Below are positions 3,972 to 39,430 of a stretch of DNA of 50,709 bases, one piece after another. Made by a program: the position numbers and the translations under genes. The notes under the pieces were generated by a model. It worked only from the letters and a program-made list of their open reading frames with translations. It ran no database searches and was not told where the DNA came from. Each line of letters begins with the position of its first letter. Within the stretch, counting starts at the first letter, position 1. Source of the DNA: Escherichia phage vojen; the sequence record NC_049824.1; one strand, 5' to 3'.

Positions 3972-3991
3972 ATAGCACTAATTGTTAAAAC
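3972..3991 (+). promoter_or_regulatory. Conserved element, variant ATAGCACTAATTGTTAAAAC
   Basis: Variant motif; TATAAT (4009-4014) sits inside a GGCC...GGCC dyad at a 17-bp gap. Confidence 0.5.
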
Positions 3992-4044
3992 TCAAATGTG
4001 GGGCCAAGTATAATGGCCTCACTTTCAACGAAGGAGATAAAACG

Positions 4045-7551: not shown

Positions 7552-7839
7552 ATGGCTAAAAGCAATCGTAAAATGTTGATTAACGCATTCGAAAAGGCAG
7601 CGCTTGAGCGTGGTTGGAATGACTCATTTCACACGGCAAACTGTATCCGACGTTACGGATTCAAGAATTGCCGATCCTGGGCGCGTCAAATGGCTTCATG
7701 GTATGATCTTGATGCGCATTACCTTGATATGGATTGCGCTCTGGTTGAAATGATTGAGCAGGCAGCATTAGAGGATCGACCATTAACGCAATCTGATTTT
7801 GACGATTTTGTGCGCGATGAAATCTATTACATGAGCTAA
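7552..7839 (+). CDS. hypothetical protein (95 aa)
   Basis: Start moved to ATG with AAGGAGG RBS; TAA stop abuts the next motif copy. Confidence 0.55.
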   Translation: MAKSNRKMLINAFEKAALERGWNDSFHTANCIRRYGFKNCRSWARQMASWYDLDAHYLDMDCALVEMIEQAALEDRPLTQSDFDDFVRDEIYYMS

Positions 7840-8741: not shown

Positions 8742-8750
8742 TTAAAATTG

Positions 8751-8797
8751 AATGCCTCACACAGCGAACAGGGCGCATTTTGACGAGGCATTTTTTA
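8751..8797 (+). terminator. Putative intrinsic terminator (long-loop hairpin + T-run)
   Basis: ATGCCTC...GAGGCAT inverted repeat followed by TTTTTT. Confidence 0.35.
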
Positions 8798-8811: not shown

Positions 8812-8940
8812 ATGGATAACTACATAAAACCGTCGCAGTGGCGCGCACAGATGCAAGAGCAAGCATTAGAGCGCGGCGACACTGAAACGGCAATGCACTA
8901 TTTCGAAATGTACAACTTGTGGAAGGATAGGGGTCTGTAA
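8812..8940 (+). CDS. small hypothetical protein (42 aa)
   Basis: Short ORF with AGGTGA RBS; stop overlaps the next start. Confidence 0.3.
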   Translation: MDNYIKPSQWRAQMQEQALERGDTETAMHYFEMYNLWKDRGL

Positions 8941-9170
8941 TGTTTGGAATGAACGAAGCACAATTCAACGCTGCAAAACGCCAGGCTAAGAAGTGCGGCG
9001 AGGCAATGAAGGCGGATGTTGAAAAGCGAGGGAAGTATGTTGATGAAGTCATGAAGGGCATTATTGCCGAACATTATCAGCCAGTTGCGCCAATGCTGAC
9101 AATTACCCAATTCATCTGGTTGTGTGGTTATCTTCGTGGGAGGTGGGGAAACGCATTTGACCGCGAATGA
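8940..9170 (+). CDS. hypothetical protein (76 aa)
   Basis: ORF with TAATG overlap to the upstream small ORF. Confidence 0.5.
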   Translation: MFGMNEAQFNAAKRQAKKCGEAMKADVEKRGKYVDEVMKGIIAEHYQPVAPMLTITQFIWLCGYLRGRWGNAFDRE

Positions 9171-9305
9171 TTGACAACGATTTCCTGATTGGTTAGCATA
9201 TTCAGCGTTTACATAAGAGCGGCATTAGTGCCGAACGGGTGGCGCGGTTGCCACGCAACAACGGCGATATGCAGGTTTTTACCGTAAGACGTATCGCCTT
9301 TTTTT
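9171..9305 (+). ncRNA. Candidate small RNA unit (promoter-like hexamers, structured ~100 nt, terminator)
   Basis: TTGACA, 17-bp spacer, TAGCAT; no ORF; local stems (GTGGC...GCCAC); GGCGATA...TATCGCC hairpin followed by TTTTTTT. Confidence 0.3.
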
Positions 9306-9317
9306 ATAGGTGAATAT

Positions 9318-9551
9318 ATGGAAAAGTACAAATTAACTTTCATGTTTGACAGTATGGTGATGAATCCATTAAATGGTTACGCTTGCAATAGCTTTTCTGT
9401 TACCGTGAATGAGGATGAAATTGATGATGATGGTAAATTTATTCGAATAGGTGATTACATTTATCCTATTCACAATATCAATTGCATCAAGCGCGAGATT
9501 GTTAAAGATGAAGTACAAAGTAAAGCTGACAATCAGACGAATGGGGCGTAA
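9318..9551 (+). CDS. hypothetical protein in AT-rich cassette (77 aa)
   Basis: ORF with AGGTGA RBS; visibly more AT-rich than flanking genes. Confidence 0.5.
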   Translation: MEKYKLTFMFDSMVMNPLNGYACNSFSVTVNEDEIDDDGKFIRIGDYIYPIHNINCIKREIVKDEVQSKADNQTNGA

Positions 9552-9689
9552 TTGCCAGTCATGTAGGCAGGATTTTGAATGCGAGATTTCAGCGCAAAAT
9601 CCTGTTGACGCGATTCAATGTGCTAAAGTTATATCAGGTGCAGATCCAGAGACGCATCAATTTTCAATCAATTTTGTAAGGGAAGTATC

Positions 9690-9923
9690 ATGTTAAACTT
9701 AATTTCTGCTTTTGTTATTGGTTTTGTTCTTGCTGTGATTATTCTGCTTATCGCGTCGGAAAAGATTTGCAAATTTCTTGCTAAGAACGGGAAGTTTGCA
9801 AGCGCGACATGGAATAACAAGATGCAGCGATGGGATGTGCGCGGTCACTATCTGACGATCGGTAGCAAAATCCATCAGCATCTGAAGAATCAAGAAGATG
9901 AAAAAGTAAAATACAAGTGTTGA
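9690..9923 (+). CDS. small membrane protein (77 aa, N-terminal TM helix)
   Basis: N-terminal hydrophobic segment ISAFVIGFVLAVIILLIA; AT-rich. Confidence 0.5.
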   Translation: MLNLISAFVIGFVLAVIILLIASEKICKFLAKNGKFASATWNNKMQRWDVRGHYLTIGSKIHQHLKNQEDEKVKYKC

Positions 9924-9930
9924 ACAACTA

Positions 9931-9955
9931 CCCGCCAAATGGCGGGTTTTTTATT
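9931..9955 (+). terminator. Rho-independent terminator
   Basis: CCCGCC-AAAT-GGCGGG hairpin followed by TTTTTTATT. Confidence 0.8.
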
Positions 9956-10003
9956 GCCTGCAATTTGTCTATAATGATGCTTTGTTATAAAGGAGGGCGC
10001 ATT

Positions 10004-10525
10004 ATGGCTAAAAACGTTGAGCCAGCAGTAAAGGCTTGCAATTTTAAAAAACTATATAATAAGCAATATGGCGATATAGCAAAAATGACAAAGGCGCACA
10101 AGTACACGCCTGAGCAGGTATTTGATCTGGCTGTTCGTTACTTTACTTGGGCTGAGGAAAACCATATACAGGCTGCGGAAACGGCATCCTTTCAGGGTGA
10201 CGTGTACGAAAGCAAGATTCACAAGCCGCGCGTGTTCACCTTAAACGGATTCCGATTATTCGCTGGCCTTTCTGCTTCCGTACTTGAAAAATGGCGACGT
10301 GAGCCAGGATTCAGCGAGGTTATGGACTTTATCGACGGCGTTGTTTACGAGCAAAAATTCCAGCTTGCCGCAAACAATATTGTTAACGCCGGATTCATTG
10401 GTAAGGAGATCGGCATTGAAAAGCCAGCCACCGTTACCATTGAGAATAACACAAGCGCCAGCGTTGACGCTGTAACGGCGGAGGAAGTCAAAGAGGCGGT
10501 AATTGACATTCTGGAGAAGATATAA
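10004..10525 (+). CDS. putative terminase small subunit
   Basis: Position immediately upstream of the large terminase with TAATG overlap; AAGGAGGG RBS; TATAAT at 9970-9975 upstream. Confidence 0.5.
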   Translation: MAKNVEPAVKACNFKKLYNKQYGDIAKMTKAHKYTPEQVFDLAVRYFTWAEENHIQAAETASFQGDVYESKIHKPRVFTLNGFRLFAGLSASVLEKWRREPGFSEVMDFIDGVVYEQKFQLAANNIVNAGFIGKEIGIEKPATVTIENNTSASVDAVTAEEVKEAVIDILEKI

Positions 10526-12093
10526 TGCTGATTTGGGAAGACTTAACAGCGGCGCAAAAACGCGCCGTTAAGGAAATGAGCGAATATTCATTCGAAAAGA
10601 TGATCCGCATTTGGTTTCAACTTCTCCAGGGGCAAAGGTTCTTAGGAAACTGGCATTTCAGTTACCTATGCAGCGAAGTTGAAAAAATCATCAAAGGCGA
10701 GTCACAGAATGTAATTTTCAACATAACGCCAGGTAGTGGTAAAACAGAGATATTCTCGATCCATATGTCACCTTATGCGTCATTGAAAAGTAAGAAGGTG
10801 AGAAATCTTAATTTGTCGTTTAGTGATGGCCTTGTCCAGCAGAACAGCAACCGCATCAAAGAGATTATTGGTTCTCCAGAATGGCAGGAGTTATGGCCTG
10901 GAAAGCTGGCAAAGGCGAGCGCAAAGGATTTGATTGTAACCGATGGCGGCAAGGTTAAATTGCAAGTTAACTCGCGTTCTATCGGTGGTCAGGTTACTGG
11001 TCTGCGTGGCGGCTACATGGACGATGGATTTACTGGTATGCTGGTTCTTGACGATCCAGACAAGCCGGATGACATGCTTTCTAAGGTGAAGCGCGAAGCC
11101 GGACACATGCGCCTAAAGAACACGGTGCGATCGCGTCGAATGAAAGACACTACGCCAATTGTGATGGTTCAGCAACGTCTACACGTCAATGATTCAACAT
11201 GGTTCATGACAAACGGCGGCATGGGCGGCATCCAGTTTAAGGTGGTCAGTATTCCGGCGCTCGTTACTAAGGAATATCGCGAAACGCTTCCTGATTGGTT
11301 AAAGCCTGAGTTTGATCGCGATGTTTTGTCCAGTAAGCCAGTGATGATTGATGGCGTTGCTCATTATTCATTCTGGCCTGCTAAGGAAAGCGCGGAGGAA
11401 TTACTTGCACTTCGCAATGCTGATCCTTACACGTTCGCTAGTCAGTATCAGCAACAGCCTGTTGCGCTTGGCGGTAACGTGTTTAAAACAGAGTGGTTTC
11501 AGTATTACGGCAGCAGCGAGAAATGCACGCTACCAAAACCGGATCGCTTTGAATATACATTTATCACGGTTGATACCGCACAGAAAACAGGGGAGCTTAA
11601 CGACTACTCCGTGATCTGTTATTGGGGGATGTATAAAGATCGCGTTTACTTCATTGATGGTGTTCGCGGAAAATGGGAAGCACCAGACCTTGAGACTAAT
11701 TTTGTTGCGTTCGTTAATCAGTGCTGGAAGCGCAATAAAGAATGCGGAACGTTGCGAAGGATTCATGTTGAAGATAAGTCATCTGGCACTGGCTTGATTC
11801 AGAGCGCAGCGAAAAAAATCATGATCAAGATTAATCCCGTTCAGCGAGATAAAGATAAGGTTACGCGAGCAATGGACGCAGCGCCAGTAATGCGCGCCGG
11901 ACGCGTAGCACTTCCAGAATCGCATCCTATGCTGGCTGAGATACTAGCTGAAGTTGCGGCGTTCACATTCGATGATTCGCATCCTAATGATGATATTGTT
12001 GATAACATCATTGATGCGGTTAACATTGAAATGAACATGGCAGATGATCCGGTTGGAAGAATGAAAAAATTGGCAGGTTTGCGGAACAAATAG
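10525..12093 (+). CDS. terL: terminase large subunit
   Basis: Walker A-like PGSGKTE, Walker B-like LVLDDPD, C-terminal nuclease-like region, 522 aa, followed by portal. Confidence 0.85.
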   Translation: MLIWEDLTAAQKRAVKEMSEYSFEKMIRIWFQLLQGQRFLGNWHFSYLCSEVEKIIKGESQNVIFNITPGSGKTEIFSIHMSPYASLKSKKVRNLNLSFSDGLVQQNSNRIKEIIGSPEWQELWPGKLAKASAKDLIVTDGGKVKLQVNSRSIGGQVTGLRGGYMDDGFTGMLVLDDPDKPDDMLSKVKREAGHMRLKNTVRSRRMKDTTPIVMVQQRLHVNDSTWFMTNGGMGGIQFKVVSIPALVTKEYRETLPDWLKPEFDRDVLSSKPVMIDGVAHYSFWPAKESAEELLALRNADPYTFASQYQQQPVALGGNVFKTEWFQYYGSSEKCTLPKPDRFEYTFITVDTAQKTGELNDYSVICYWGMYKDRVYFIDGVRGKWEAPDLETNFVAFVNQCWKRNKECGTLRRIHVEDKSSGTGLIQSAAKKIMIKINPVQRDKDKVTRAMDAAPVMRAGRVALPESHPMLAEILAEVAAFTFDDSHPNDDIVDNIIDAVNIEMNMADDPVGRMKKLAGLRNK

Positions 12094-14209: not shown

Positions 14210-15322
14210 ATGAAGGCAAAACAAAGATTTGATAGCGTCCAGGTTAAGGCGCATTTTGATGATAATGGATTTTTAGTGGATCGCCCAATTGTGGCGCGAA
14301 TTGGTTTGCAGGAGTACCGCACACCGTATGGAATCAGACGAGAGTTCCGACCAGCGTCAGAGGTATTTAAGGCTGATTCGCTTGCTACGTTCGCAGGCAA
14401 GCCGATCACTATCGGTCACGTCACGGTAACGCCAGACAATGCGGATCAGGTTGTTGTTGGTTCATGCGCTGGCGCTGGTGTTCCAAATGGTATTGGCGTT
14501 GAAGTTCCGTTAAGCATTTACTCAAAGCGAGCAATTGAGAGCGCAAAAAAGAAAGACACGGCGGAAATTTCAGTTGGTTACACATCGGTTGATATTGACA
14601 AGCCAGGCTGGGGTAATAATAAAACCGGAGATTACTTGTTTGAGGAAGACCTAAATGAAGACTGGAAGCCTGATTCTCCTGATTGGGTTAAATTTGACGC
14701 CATTCAGACGAATATCCGCGTTAATCACATTGCACTTGTCTTTCGTGGTCGTGCTGGCATTGCCAAATTAAATCTTGATAGTGAACAGGATTTTCCGTAT
14801 AGTGACGAGGTTCTAAATGACAAAGGAGATGAGGAAATGACAGTAAAAATTAAACTTGATGGCGCGGTAGAATTTGATGTTCCAAAGGCCGTTGCAGATC
14901 ACATCGAGGCGCTAAAGGCTGATGCAAAAGCTGCAACCGAAAAAGCTGATGGCCTTGAGGCCGAGCGCGACGCCCTGAAAACTAAAGTTGATGGCATTCC
15001 TGCGCAGATTGCAGAAGCTGTTAAGAAGGCAAAGACTGACGCAGAAGAACATGCCAAGCTGGTTGCAGATGCAACTGAAATTGGCATCAAGTGTGACGGC
15101 TTGGACGCTAAAGCGATCAAGGTTGCTTACGTCAAAGAAGTCACTGGCGCTGATATTTCAGAAAAAGCCGATGCATATATTGAAACAGCTTTTGACCTTG
15201 CGAAGCAGTCTGATAAAATGGCGGCGCAGCGTAAATCTGTTAAGGGCTATTCTTTCGGGTCTGGCAAGAGTGAAAAAACCGACTCCCTTGATCCGACTGC
15301 GCGTTTGAAAAAACTTAAATAA
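14210..15322 (+). CDS. putative prohead protease / scaffolding protein
   Basis: 370 aa; Ala/Lys/Glu-rich coiled-coil-like C-terminal half; sits between head-morphogenesis and capsid genes. Confidence 0.5.
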   Translation: MKAKQRFDSVQVKAHFDDNGFLVDRPIVARIGLQEYRTPYGIRREFRPASEVFKADSLATFAGKPITIGHVTVTPDNADQVVVGSCAGAGVPNGIGVEVPLSIYSKRAIESAKKKDTAEISVGYTSVDIDKPGWGNNKTGDYLFEEDLNEDWKPDSPDWVKFDAIQTNIRVNHIALVFRGRAGIAKLNLDSEQDFPYSDEVLNDKGDEEMTVKIKLDGAVEFDVPKAVADHIEALKADAKAATEKADGLEAERDALKTKVDGIPAQIAEAVKKAKTDAEEHAKLVADATEIGIKCDGLDAKAIKVAYVKEVTGADISEKADAYIETAFDLAKQSDKMAAQRKSVKGYSFGSGKSEKTDSLDPTARLKKLK

Positions 15323-38956: not shown

Positions 38957-39430
38957 TTAGCAATTAGTGCTTTCAGGTTTATACAGGAATCCGCCAGGTT
39001 CATAATCTGACATTCTTACCACTCGCAACATTTCACGCTTATCACATCTCTTTGTGAGCGGTTTTCCATTGGAATCAAATCGCAGATCTGGACGGCAGAA
39101 TGAAGCGCGATAGCCTTGACAGCCATACTTTTTGTAATCGTTATGCACCTTTTGAGCGCCAGCGGCTGAAATCATACCGCGAACGCGCCACTGATTTACA
39201 GTTTGCTGGCTAACGTTAAGACGCTTTGCCATTGCTGACACGCTGCCGTAATACTCAATAAGAATGTCAAGCCGTGCTTTTAGTCCGGCGCGCACTTCAT
39301 CTTTTAAAACATAGTATCCTGTAGGGCGCTTGCGCTTTTTCTTATCTTTACCCCGTCGAGTTCCGTTATTGCCATTGATTGTGCGTTTGTCAATCTTACC
39401 AGTTGATACTGCGATTCGCTGTTCTTTCAT
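38957..39430 (-). CDS. putative DNA-binding regulator (basic N-terminus, HTH-like segment)
   Basis: KDKKKRKRP basic stretch; LNVSQQTVNQWR HTH-like segment; GGAGA RBS; start abuts a conserved element in the divergent region. Confidence 0.5.
   Translation of the reverse strand: MKEQRIAVSTGKIDKRTINGNNGTRRGKDKKKRKRPTGYYVLKDEVRAGLKARLDILIEYYGSVSAMAKRLNVSQQTVNQWRVRGMISAAGAQKVHNDYKKYGCQGYRASFCRPDLRFDSNGKPLTKRCDKREMLRVVRMSDYEPGGFLYKPESTNC

Follow-up and report, generated by a model that had tools for sequence, protein, structure and literature searches.

The DNA analyzed here, hereafter called the window, is the whole 50,709-nucleotide (50.7-kb) stretch of Escherichia phage vojen (sequence record NC_049824.1). 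A unit at positions 9171-9305 of its plus strand is read as a promoter-proximal structured leader RNA that heads the packaging/late gene block and would act as an attenuator in this phage, a reading to which a probability of roughly 45% is given. The promoter, the RNA structure and the genomic position of the unit are conserved among related phages, the stem of its terminator covaries, and the element is single-copy. Its start and stop positions, termination by default and an effect of its 5' module on read-through are predicted from these features. The kind of element is known (a phage late-operon leader, attenuator or small RNA (sRNA)), and the RNA family is new and previously undescribed. 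The parts of the unit are the following.

9171-9176, plus strand: -35 hexamer TTGACA, starting directly after the TGA stop of the ipe-like gene
9185-9192, plus strand: promoter spacer motif CTGATTGG (family form CTGAyyGG)
9194-9199, plus strand: -10 hexamer TAGCAT (family pattern TAnnnT)
9204-9207, plus strand: predicted transcription start, 5-8 nt past the -10 hexamer, placed by sigma-70 promoter geometry
9206-9219, plus strand: 5' single-stranded motif CGTTTACATAAGAG (family form CGUnnACAyAAGAG), from the alignments; single copy in the window
9220-9233, plus strand: hairpin SL1, with CGGCA (9220-9224), loop TTAG and TGCCG (9229-9233), followed by a conserved AAC; from MAFFT alignment A2
9239-9254, plus strand: hairpin SL2, with GTGGC (9239-9243), loop GCGGTT (family form GCGnUn) and GCCAC (9250-9254); from alignment A2
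9257-9262, plus strand: linker AACAAC, an A-rich single strand of the ARN type that joins SL2 to the terminator; from the sequence
9263-9298, plus strand: terminator stem SL3, in which GGCGATATG (9263-9271) pairs with CGTATCGCC (9290-9298); 9 bp with an 18-nt loop
9299-9305, plus strand: T7 tract, predicted 3' end of a transcript of ~100 nt; from the sequence

The window belongs to a T1-like siphophage, a Hanrivervirus (Drexlerviridae, Tempevirinae). When the 171 nt around the unit served as query, 129 phage records matched, at 88-100% identity for Hanrivervirus-type and ~77-78% for Warwickvirus-type sequences, and phages aaroes, damhaus and pSf-1 match the region 8900-9600 at 94-96% identity. 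The unit occupies the same position in Warwickvirus, Henuseptimavirus, Tlsvirus, Tunavirus (T1 and Shfl1), Webervirus, Kyungwonvirus, Rogunavirus and Braunvirinae. At least nine Drexlerviridae lineages share one layout: TTGAC, a spacer of 17±1 nt that often contains CTGAyyGG, TAnnnT, 5-6 nt, CGTnnACAyAAGAG, and then hairpins. A pattern scan of IMG/VR returned 109 stretches, and the full layout was present in 68 of the 116 pattern matches (58 distinct sequences), the remainder being chance matches. In the phage collection searched, 833 records from throughout the family encode a homologue of the ipe protein. Phage T1 carries the unit at 7591-7754, where nothing is annotated (record AY216660), and the re-annotation of phage TLS lists other promoters, not that of the unit (PMC11447400).

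The arrangement TTGACA-17-TAGCAT (9171-9199), confirmed by the promoter scan, matches the sigma-70 consensus at 10 of 12 positions. This match alone is not above chance: three promoter-like matches were found between 7 and 12 kb, where 9.0 were expected in shuffles. Conservation across lineages is what sets the promoter above chance level. In an alignment of 13 divergent lineages TTGAC never changes and the T, A and T of the -10 hexamer change rarely or not at all, whereas the spacer and the upstream flank vary, and the distance from the -10 hexamer to the CGT of the RNA motif is 5-6 nt in all 13. Conserved hexamers at a fixed distance from an RNA motif are the signature expected of a working sigma-70 promoter. 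Within the otherwise variable spacer the motif at 9185-9192 is conserved, and it may bind a protein or act like an extended -10 element; it is not found in SG01 or JK06 and is displaced in ZL19. No mapped transcriptome for T1-like phages was found in the literature.

The same comparison bears on the suggestion that the promoter is a chance resemblance, and that the region is simply the 3' untranslated region (UTR) and terminator of the upstream ipe operon. Promoter-like matches are indeed not locally enriched, and the terminator does lie downstream of a plus-strand gene, whose transcripts it can end. The hexamers, however, are kept where spacer and flanks have diverged, and together with the 5' motif they point to an independent start. 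The upstream gene is a different one in Shfl1/T1 and in JK06, and a structured module lies between promoter and terminator, unlike in a generic 3' UTR. As far as comparative evidence can decide it, a chance promoter is excluded by this conservation; we regard that explanation as extremely improbable.

The RNA structure was assessed on alignment A2, which MAFFT built without structural guidance from 19 distinct sequences representing at least nine lineages. Four of the five pairs of SL1 have changed on both sides (three of them in about half of the sequences); in the fifth, the only departures are unpaired cells. For SL2, 100% of cells are paired in the 19 sequences, four of the five pairs have changed on both sides, and an optional outer pair, G9237-C9256, can be added. 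Taken together, the two helices have 90.5% of cells paired, compared with 23-52% when the partners are slid, and 8/10 pairs changed on both sides; RNAalifold recovers both independently. Several stem positions have G·U pairs, which on the opposite strand would become A·C mismatches, so that the structure belongs to the plus-strand RNA. The 5' 14-mer, ahead of the hairpins, is more strongly conserved than any other segment of the RNA in phages of Escherichia, Klebsiella, Citrobacter and Cronobacter. With a covariance model derived from A2 the locus scored 65.9 bits and the next best site in the window 7.4 bits, and the model also retrieved homologues in the other loci. Those two scores, with the single match of the motif search in the window, rule out a second genomic copy of the kind seen in the putL/putR pair. 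The fold of the 101 nt as a whole is only mildly unusual relative to shuffles (z = -2.0); as with the promoter match, it is comparative conservation that raises the feature above chance, where the fold alone does not. A closing helix CGU/ACG around SL1 was considered and rejected, all of its positions being invariant and the helix being broken without compensation in SG01 and TLS.

Part of this conservation could also be expected if the sequences from -25 to +16 were operators acting at the DNA level (CTGAyyGG, and the near-palindrome CGT-N2-AC, repeated as CGTAAGACG in the third hairpin) and the RNA had no role of its own. The spacer motif and the initial transcribed sequence are conserved, and CGTnnAC(A/G) and CGTAAGACG have short palindromic arms. 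The phage also encodes at least one Cro/YdaS-like helix-turn-helix protein (157 aa, 38957-39430, minus strand), a weak match (E 1e-5 to 5e-7) that narrowly misses the Pfam cut-offs and the sole candidate DNA-binding regulator among the open reading frames (ORFs) scanned. Operators, however, do not predict three helices whose pairing is maintained by compensatory changes and by G·U pairs possible only in the plus-strand RNA. The palindromic arms are only 3 bp long, and the spacer motif is absent or displaced in the three phages named above. An exclusively DNA-level element is therefore judged very unlikely, although operators could coexist with an RNA function.

The third hairpin, SL3, has an energy of -13.8 kcal/mol (z = -3.3 relative to shuffles), and on alignment A4 98.4% of its cells are paired and 5/9 of its pairs have changed on both sides. 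It combines a stable stem with a U-tract longer than the five residues looked for in an intrinsic terminator; its loop is longer than the usual 3-8 nt and contains an inner 3-bp GGT/ACC helix and a conserved CCGTAA at 9282-9287. Loops of up to 35 nt occur in the terminators of relatives. The linker that precedes the stem is kept as ACAACAAC in the group formed by Hanrivervirus, Warwickvirus, L034 and L041. Several statements of a preliminary description of this region, made from the letters alone, are borne out by these data: it had pointed to the promoter hexamers, to several local stems, of which SL1 and SL2 are now confirmed by covariation, and to a hairpin with a TTTTTTT run, which is the 9-bp stem with its T7. 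Covariance across related phages, which it had proposed as a check, was found for all three stems on structure-blind alignments. Structure prediction, also among its proposed checks, gave the more extreme z-score for the terminator hairpin and the less extreme one for the 101 nt as a whole.

Two side observations concern the terminator. In Warwickvirus (XY3, L002 1590-1650; JLBYU41, L003) and some Hanrivervirus phages, the terminator loop has a 17-nt insertion at the equivalent of window positions 9275-9281. The insertion creates GGAGG-N8-ATG CAA AAT AAT CCG TAA, a Shine-Dalgarno sequence with a mini-ORF of five codons that has its stop 1 nt upstream of the terminator's 3' strand, and a ribosome on this mini-ORF could block folding of the terminator. 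This arrangement prompted the idea of a leader peptide ending at CCG-UAA throughout the family, which was rejected: the frame is open for only 1-32 codons (1 codon in L041 and L034) and has no start codon in 6/10 leaders. Separately, about 20 records labelled 'Campylobacter phage' (MG0656xx, host C. jejuni) are 93-96% identical to the T1-like region and are probably mislabelled or contaminant T1-like phages. Their homology breaks directly after the terminator (~9303), which suggests that the terminator marks a mosaic boundary.

Across the family the third hairpin, with a loop ending in (C/G)(C/G/U)GUAA, is present in all lineages except Webervirus and SG01, and two classes can be distinguished. 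Class I consists of the Tempevirinae relatives Hanrivervirus, Warwickvirus, Henuseptimavirus, the K50 type, L034 and L041. Here the stem is 7-9 bp long, is followed by 4-8 U and forms an intrinsic terminator of -11 to -20 kcal/mol. Class II consists of Tlsvirus, one further clade, Tunavirus/T1, ZL19, JK06 and AAS23, and has a perfect 5-bp helix in six sequence versions (chance probability ~0.02 each) with a loop of 8-10 nt; there is no U-run, and ACnAUUCA and then a Shine-Dalgarno sequence follow the hairpin. The U-tract after the third hairpin is found in the Tempevirinae relatives only, and Sauletekiovirus is among the sister lineages that lack it. The leader of Webervirus is 68 nt long and contains SL1 and a single GC hairpin followed by (A/U)UUUA; across lineages the untranslated leader measures 68-330 nt. 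Since class II has no U-tract, the terminator of the window is a lineage-specific elaboration of a conserved leader hairpin.

In two of the phages without a U-tract, JK06 (Rogunavirus; L007 1903-1978) and ZL19 (Braunvirinae; L121 2211-2288), a tRNA-Arg gene lies 11-12 nt past the third hairpin and immediately ahead of the Zn-ribbon gene's Shine-Dalgarno sequence. Its anticodon is CCT in JK06 and TCT in ZL19. The leader is ~300 nt long in these phages, and the hairpin that precedes the tRNA has a CCGUAA/GGUAA loop. Processing by RNase P at the tRNA would sever the leader from the mRNA.

The preliminary description took the unit for an independently transcribed small RNA, and this interpretation is partly supported. 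The unit has its own conserved sigma-70 promoter, a conserved structure and, in this phage, a covarying terminator, from which a discrete transcript of ~100 nt would be the expected default product. What does not carry over to sister lineages is the discrete gene: class II phages, T1 included, lack the U-tract, and the RNA continues into a Shine-Dalgarno sequence or tRNA-Arg. The unit is probably a control point for late-gene transcription and may also yield a small RNA. A stronger version, which we consider possible but doubtful, holds that the terminated RNA is itself functional, as a trans-acting and probably Hfq-dependent sRNA with the 5' 14-mer as seed for a host or phage mRNA; in lineages without a U-tract, the RNA would be freed from a 5' UTR by RNase P (at the tRNA-Arg of JK06 and ZL19) or by RNase E, an extension given the same low standing. 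The anatomy fits enterobacterial 5'-seed sRNAs, with an unpaired conserved 5' end, hairpins, AACAAC as an ARN element, and a terminator with U7, a tail of the length expected of such RNAs; the seed would be the best-conserved segment of the RNA across phages of four host genera, and the tRNA-Arg genes would provide for release by RNase P. There is also a precedent in StxS, the leader terminated between PR' and tR', which is a functional Hfq-bound sRNA (PMC7547250). Against these points, the seed complement CTCTTATGT has three matches in the phage genome where 10 were expected, so that no phage target stands above chance. Most lineages, including T1, have no terminator and their RNA is contiguous with the downstream mRNA, and the U-tails of several class I relatives number only 4-6. 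The position at the head of an operon is strictly conserved, which a trans-acting gene does not need. The sRNA and attenuator readings are compatible.

Early-type small genes on the plus strand fill ~1.7-9.2 kb, and the unit lies exactly at the boundary between early and late genes, with the ipe-like gene upstream and the cluster of Zn-ribbon, DUF7299, terS and terL genes downstream. The surrounding features are as follows.

8940-9170, plus strand: ipe-like gene (phrog_303), with a TGA stop at 9168-9170 that abuts the -35 hexamer; no function was assigned by the scans
9308-9320, plus strand: Shine-Dalgarno AGGTGA (9308-9313) and ATG of the first downstream gene, from the sequence and the ORF list
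9318-9551, plus strand: first downstream gene, a 77-aa ORF
9508-9696, plus strand: Zn-ribbon protein gene (phrog_2919), with its start at 9508 set by homologues beginning MKxxKVxLTIRKMG
9690-9923, plus strand: DUF7299 membrane protein gene
9930-9952, plus strand: second strong intrinsic terminator, just before terS, from the terminator scan
10001-10525, plus strand: terS
10525-12093, plus strand: terL

The morphogenesis genes after terL reach ~33.8 kb and are all on the plus strand. Over this block, between 9930 and 33864, at least 10 strong intrinsic terminators were found on the plus strand (9930, 12121, 15855, 17399, 20044, 20766, 23836, 30462, 33348 and 33844), and an equivalent of the one before terS is annotated in T1 and Sin4. 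Few strong promoter-like sites lie between the terminators of the late block. In the stretch from the terminator of the unit into terL, the scan found no promoter-like site on the plus strand between 9200 and 11961, and the first downstream gene therefore appears reachable only by read-through of the terminator.

On these grounds the following sequence of events is proposed. Host sigma-70 RNA polymerase would start at ~9205 from the near-consensus promoter and transcribe the 14-nt single-stranded 5' motif, SL1, SL2 and the third hairpin. At the third hairpin and its U7 the polymerase would stop by default, at ~9303, and release an RNA of ~100 nt. Only polymerases that read through would then transcribe the genes at 9318-9923, terS/terL and what follows of the plus-strand block, up to ~33.8 kb. 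The 5' module (motif, SL1 and SL2) would set the level of read-through, either directly on the polymerase, in a put-like manner, or through a phage or host factor, as with nut and N, and such control would time late expression as PR'-tR' does in lambda. That read-through is set by the leader itself is suggested by its invariant 5' motif and conserved loops, and since many strong plus-strand terminators lie downstream, control of read-through at the head of the operon would have a large effect. Attenuation would be the most economical account of these features.

The many terminators can also be taken as a sign that this one is ordinary punctuation. The hairpin and T7 would then be a leaky terminator or insulator that ends ipe transcripts and constitutively damps the promoter, with no switch, and the other hairpins would merely stabilize or insulate the 5' end of the mRNA against Rho and RNases or give the ribosome a standby site. 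Genomes of the T1 type are indeed described as a succession of units with RpoD promoters, set off on either side by Rho-independent terminators (PMC11447400). The ORFs tested yielded no regulator and the relatives no conserved alternative fold, and in a leader that is long and untranslated a structure could simply block the loading of Rho. This account nevertheless leaves unexplained the invariant unpaired 14-nt motif, the loop motifs GCGnUn of SL2 and CCGUAA of SL3, and the promoter-spacer motif. Stabilizers are, moreover, usually hairpins at the extreme 5' end, not placed past 15 unpaired nucleotides. Unregulated punctuation is accordingly thought rather unlikely to be the whole explanation.

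Several findings weigh against attenuation. The start, the stop and the efficiency of termination are all predictions, and the 18-nt loop of SL3 is atypical, so that a simple terminator scan did not call it. In class II, T1 included, the third hairpin is not a terminator, so that attenuation at this hairpin can be neither the original nor the general function of the conserved module. Weaker promoter-like sites inside the late block, at 14775 and 15192, mean that late genes may not rely solely on the promoter of the unit. Across the family the stems SL1 and SL2 have only 3-6 bp and are much shorter than those of put. No match to Q, N or another antitermination family was found by Pfam or PHROGs among the 36 ORFs tested, a search that small ORFs and novel folds could escape. 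No sigma-dependent pause element was seen either, as no hexamer in 9206-9225 has both the A at its second and the T at its sixth position of a -10-like sequence. Finally, covariation in relatives revealed no conserved alternative, antiterminator-like pairing. The minimum free energy fold of the window's RNA does pair the 5' motif with the terminator loop and 3' side, and GUUGCC with GGCGAU. A conserved role for such pairing was rejected, however, because the 5' motif varies (UU/AA/GA/GG/AG) where its proposed partner is constant and because truncated RNAs of different relatives do not fold alike; in all six class I leaders other than that of the window, SL3 forms in the fold of the full terminated transcript.

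Known RNA families and coding functions were also considered. The absence of a tRNA cloverleaf, another statement of the preliminary description, holds for the whole window, in which ARAGORN found no tRNA and Rfam no family at gathering score. At E<=10 on 9100-9400 Rfam gave only noise (sR41, 9.8 bits for a cut-off of 54), and in the relatives the only Rfam match was tRNA. The statement that ~100 nt are free of ORFs needs amending: two mechanical ORFs run over the unit, 9189-9287 on the plus strand (32 aa, TTG start) and 9209-9343 on the minus strand (44 aa), and no reading frame across the unit is conserved in relatives. Lambda boxA was rejected, being present on the minus strand only and not conserved. 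So was the ops element of RfaH: judged by the ops consensus, Webervirus has GGCGGTA with A at G8, and other lineages differ. A pac site is not favored either, as the passage of the TLS paper on a P22-like sequence does not point to the unit and the covariation, which includes G·U pairs, argues for RNA.

Further observations were made on the surroundings of the unit. The Zn-ribbon gene overlaps the 3' end of the preceding 77-aa ORF by 44 nt (9508-9551), and in several lineages this ORF is absent or swapped for unrelated small genes, so that the Zn-ribbon gene comes directly after the leader. The ipe-like, Zn-ribbon and DUF7299 proteins all belong to families of unknown function; the first two were searched against the PDB and gave no relatives, and the phrase 'inducer of pleiotropic effects' was not found in the literature. 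Another terminator-like hairpin with a large loop lies at 8750-8796, where AATGCCTC (8751-8758) pairs with GAGGCATT (8785-8792) at -13.6 kcal/mol and a T-run follows. It stands between a 103-aa and a 42-aa ORF, and the 42-aa and ipe-like genes are thus bracketed by two large-loop hairpins. A 19-nt repeat, ATAGCACTTTTTGTTAAAA, has about 20 copies in the window, where three would be expected by chance, many of them in early gene regions (positions include 1136, 2478, 2941, 3972, 5189, 6491, 7839, 20107 on the minus strand, 41967, 42987 and 48779 on the minus strand). It is the 21-nt direct repeat described for TLS (PMC11447400), and one copy overlaps a promoter-like site at 3985-4014. Abundant as it is in the window, it has no copy at the unit and was discounted as a part of it.

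How Drexlerviridae time late transcription with the host RNA polymerase alone has, to our knowledge, never been explained. T1 is a founding model phage, and Drexlerviridae are abundant in phage-therapy and BASEL-type collections. Whether late genes are controlled by attenuation, antitermination or an sRNA, the unit offers a mutable target on which such control can be tested. It also adds a new RNA family, absent from Rfam, for annotation, and its promoter and terminator form a likely strong and portable pair for the engineering of T1-like phages.

Enterobacterial Hfq-dependent sRNAs of the RybB/OmrA/MicA type, which pair through a 5' seed, resemble the unit in their length of ~100 nt, their own promoter, an unpaired conserved 5' end, an ARN tract and a Rho-independent terminator with U7. 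The unit differs in that in most related phages it is a 5' UTR without a terminator, fixed at the head of an operon. The lambda N/nut system shares with it a linear conserved motif followed by a short hairpin near a promoter and ahead of terminators, and here too the gene of a small basic early protein, the ipe-like one, adjoins. The differences are that the boxA consensus CGCUCUUA occurs only on the minus strand of the window, as the reverse complement of TAAGAGCG, and is not kept in relatives, that the loops are UUAG, GCGGUU and similar sequences, not GNRA-like pentaloops, and that no N homologue was found among the ORFs tested. Promoter-proximal antitermination RNAs are also described for conjugative elements, conAn of pLS20 (PMC8191782) and Tn916 (PMC11658703). 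By their descriptions they are likewise 5' leader RNAs that head a long operon whose terminators serve as insulators against spurious transcription, and they differ as Gram-positive systems of a plasmid and an integrative and conjugative element, bipartite with a dedicated protein.

The closest parallel to the attenuator reading is the lambda-type PR'-tR' arrangement, in which a short terminated RNA (6S, or StxS in Stx phages) is made upstream of the late genes (PMC7547250). In both, a sigma-70 promoter, probably constitutive and strong, is followed within ~100-200 nt by an intrinsic terminator and then by the late genes, which need read-through, and the default product is a short terminated RNA, a by-product that can be functional as StxS is. 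The phage of the window is, by contrast, a virulent, non-lambdoid member of Drexlerviridae, with no Q-family gene among the ORFs tested and no -10-like pause element in the initial transcribed region. The unit also has covarying RNA hairpins, which Q systems do not need, and a terminator that is absent in sister lineages.

For the 5' module the comparison is with putL of phage HK022, a two-hairpin RNA of ~70 nt that starts at its promoter and makes RNA polymerase resistant to terminators without a protein, even without a tether; put RNA has two long stems and a triplex (PMC9378689). A more speculative proposal, which we hold to be unlikely, is that the module, possibly together with the CCGUAA hairpin, is a protein-independent, put-like RNA acting on E. 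coli RNA polymerase and letting it resist ten or more late terminators, or alternatively the docking site of a new family of antiterminator proteins, for which the ipe and Zn-ribbon products are candidates. If true, a put-like module would control late transcription as its master switch, and just one other natural class of RNA is known to act in this way. Antitermination by put itself needs the zinc-binding domain of the polymerase beta' subunit. Set beside put by description only, the unit has two covarying hairpins within +15 to +50, with stems of 3-6 bp, and it differs from put in these short stems, in the 15 unpaired conserved nucleotides ahead of them and in the third hairpin with its loop conserved in the family. 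It would resemble put as a cis RNA beginning essentially at +1 to +3 of a sigma-70 promoter, with two stem-loops in ~55-70 nt, ahead of a long operon with multiple terminators, in a phage without a known antiterminator protein. Independence of a tether, as in put, would also tolerate the tRNA-Arg processing site that follows the leader in JK06 and ZL19.

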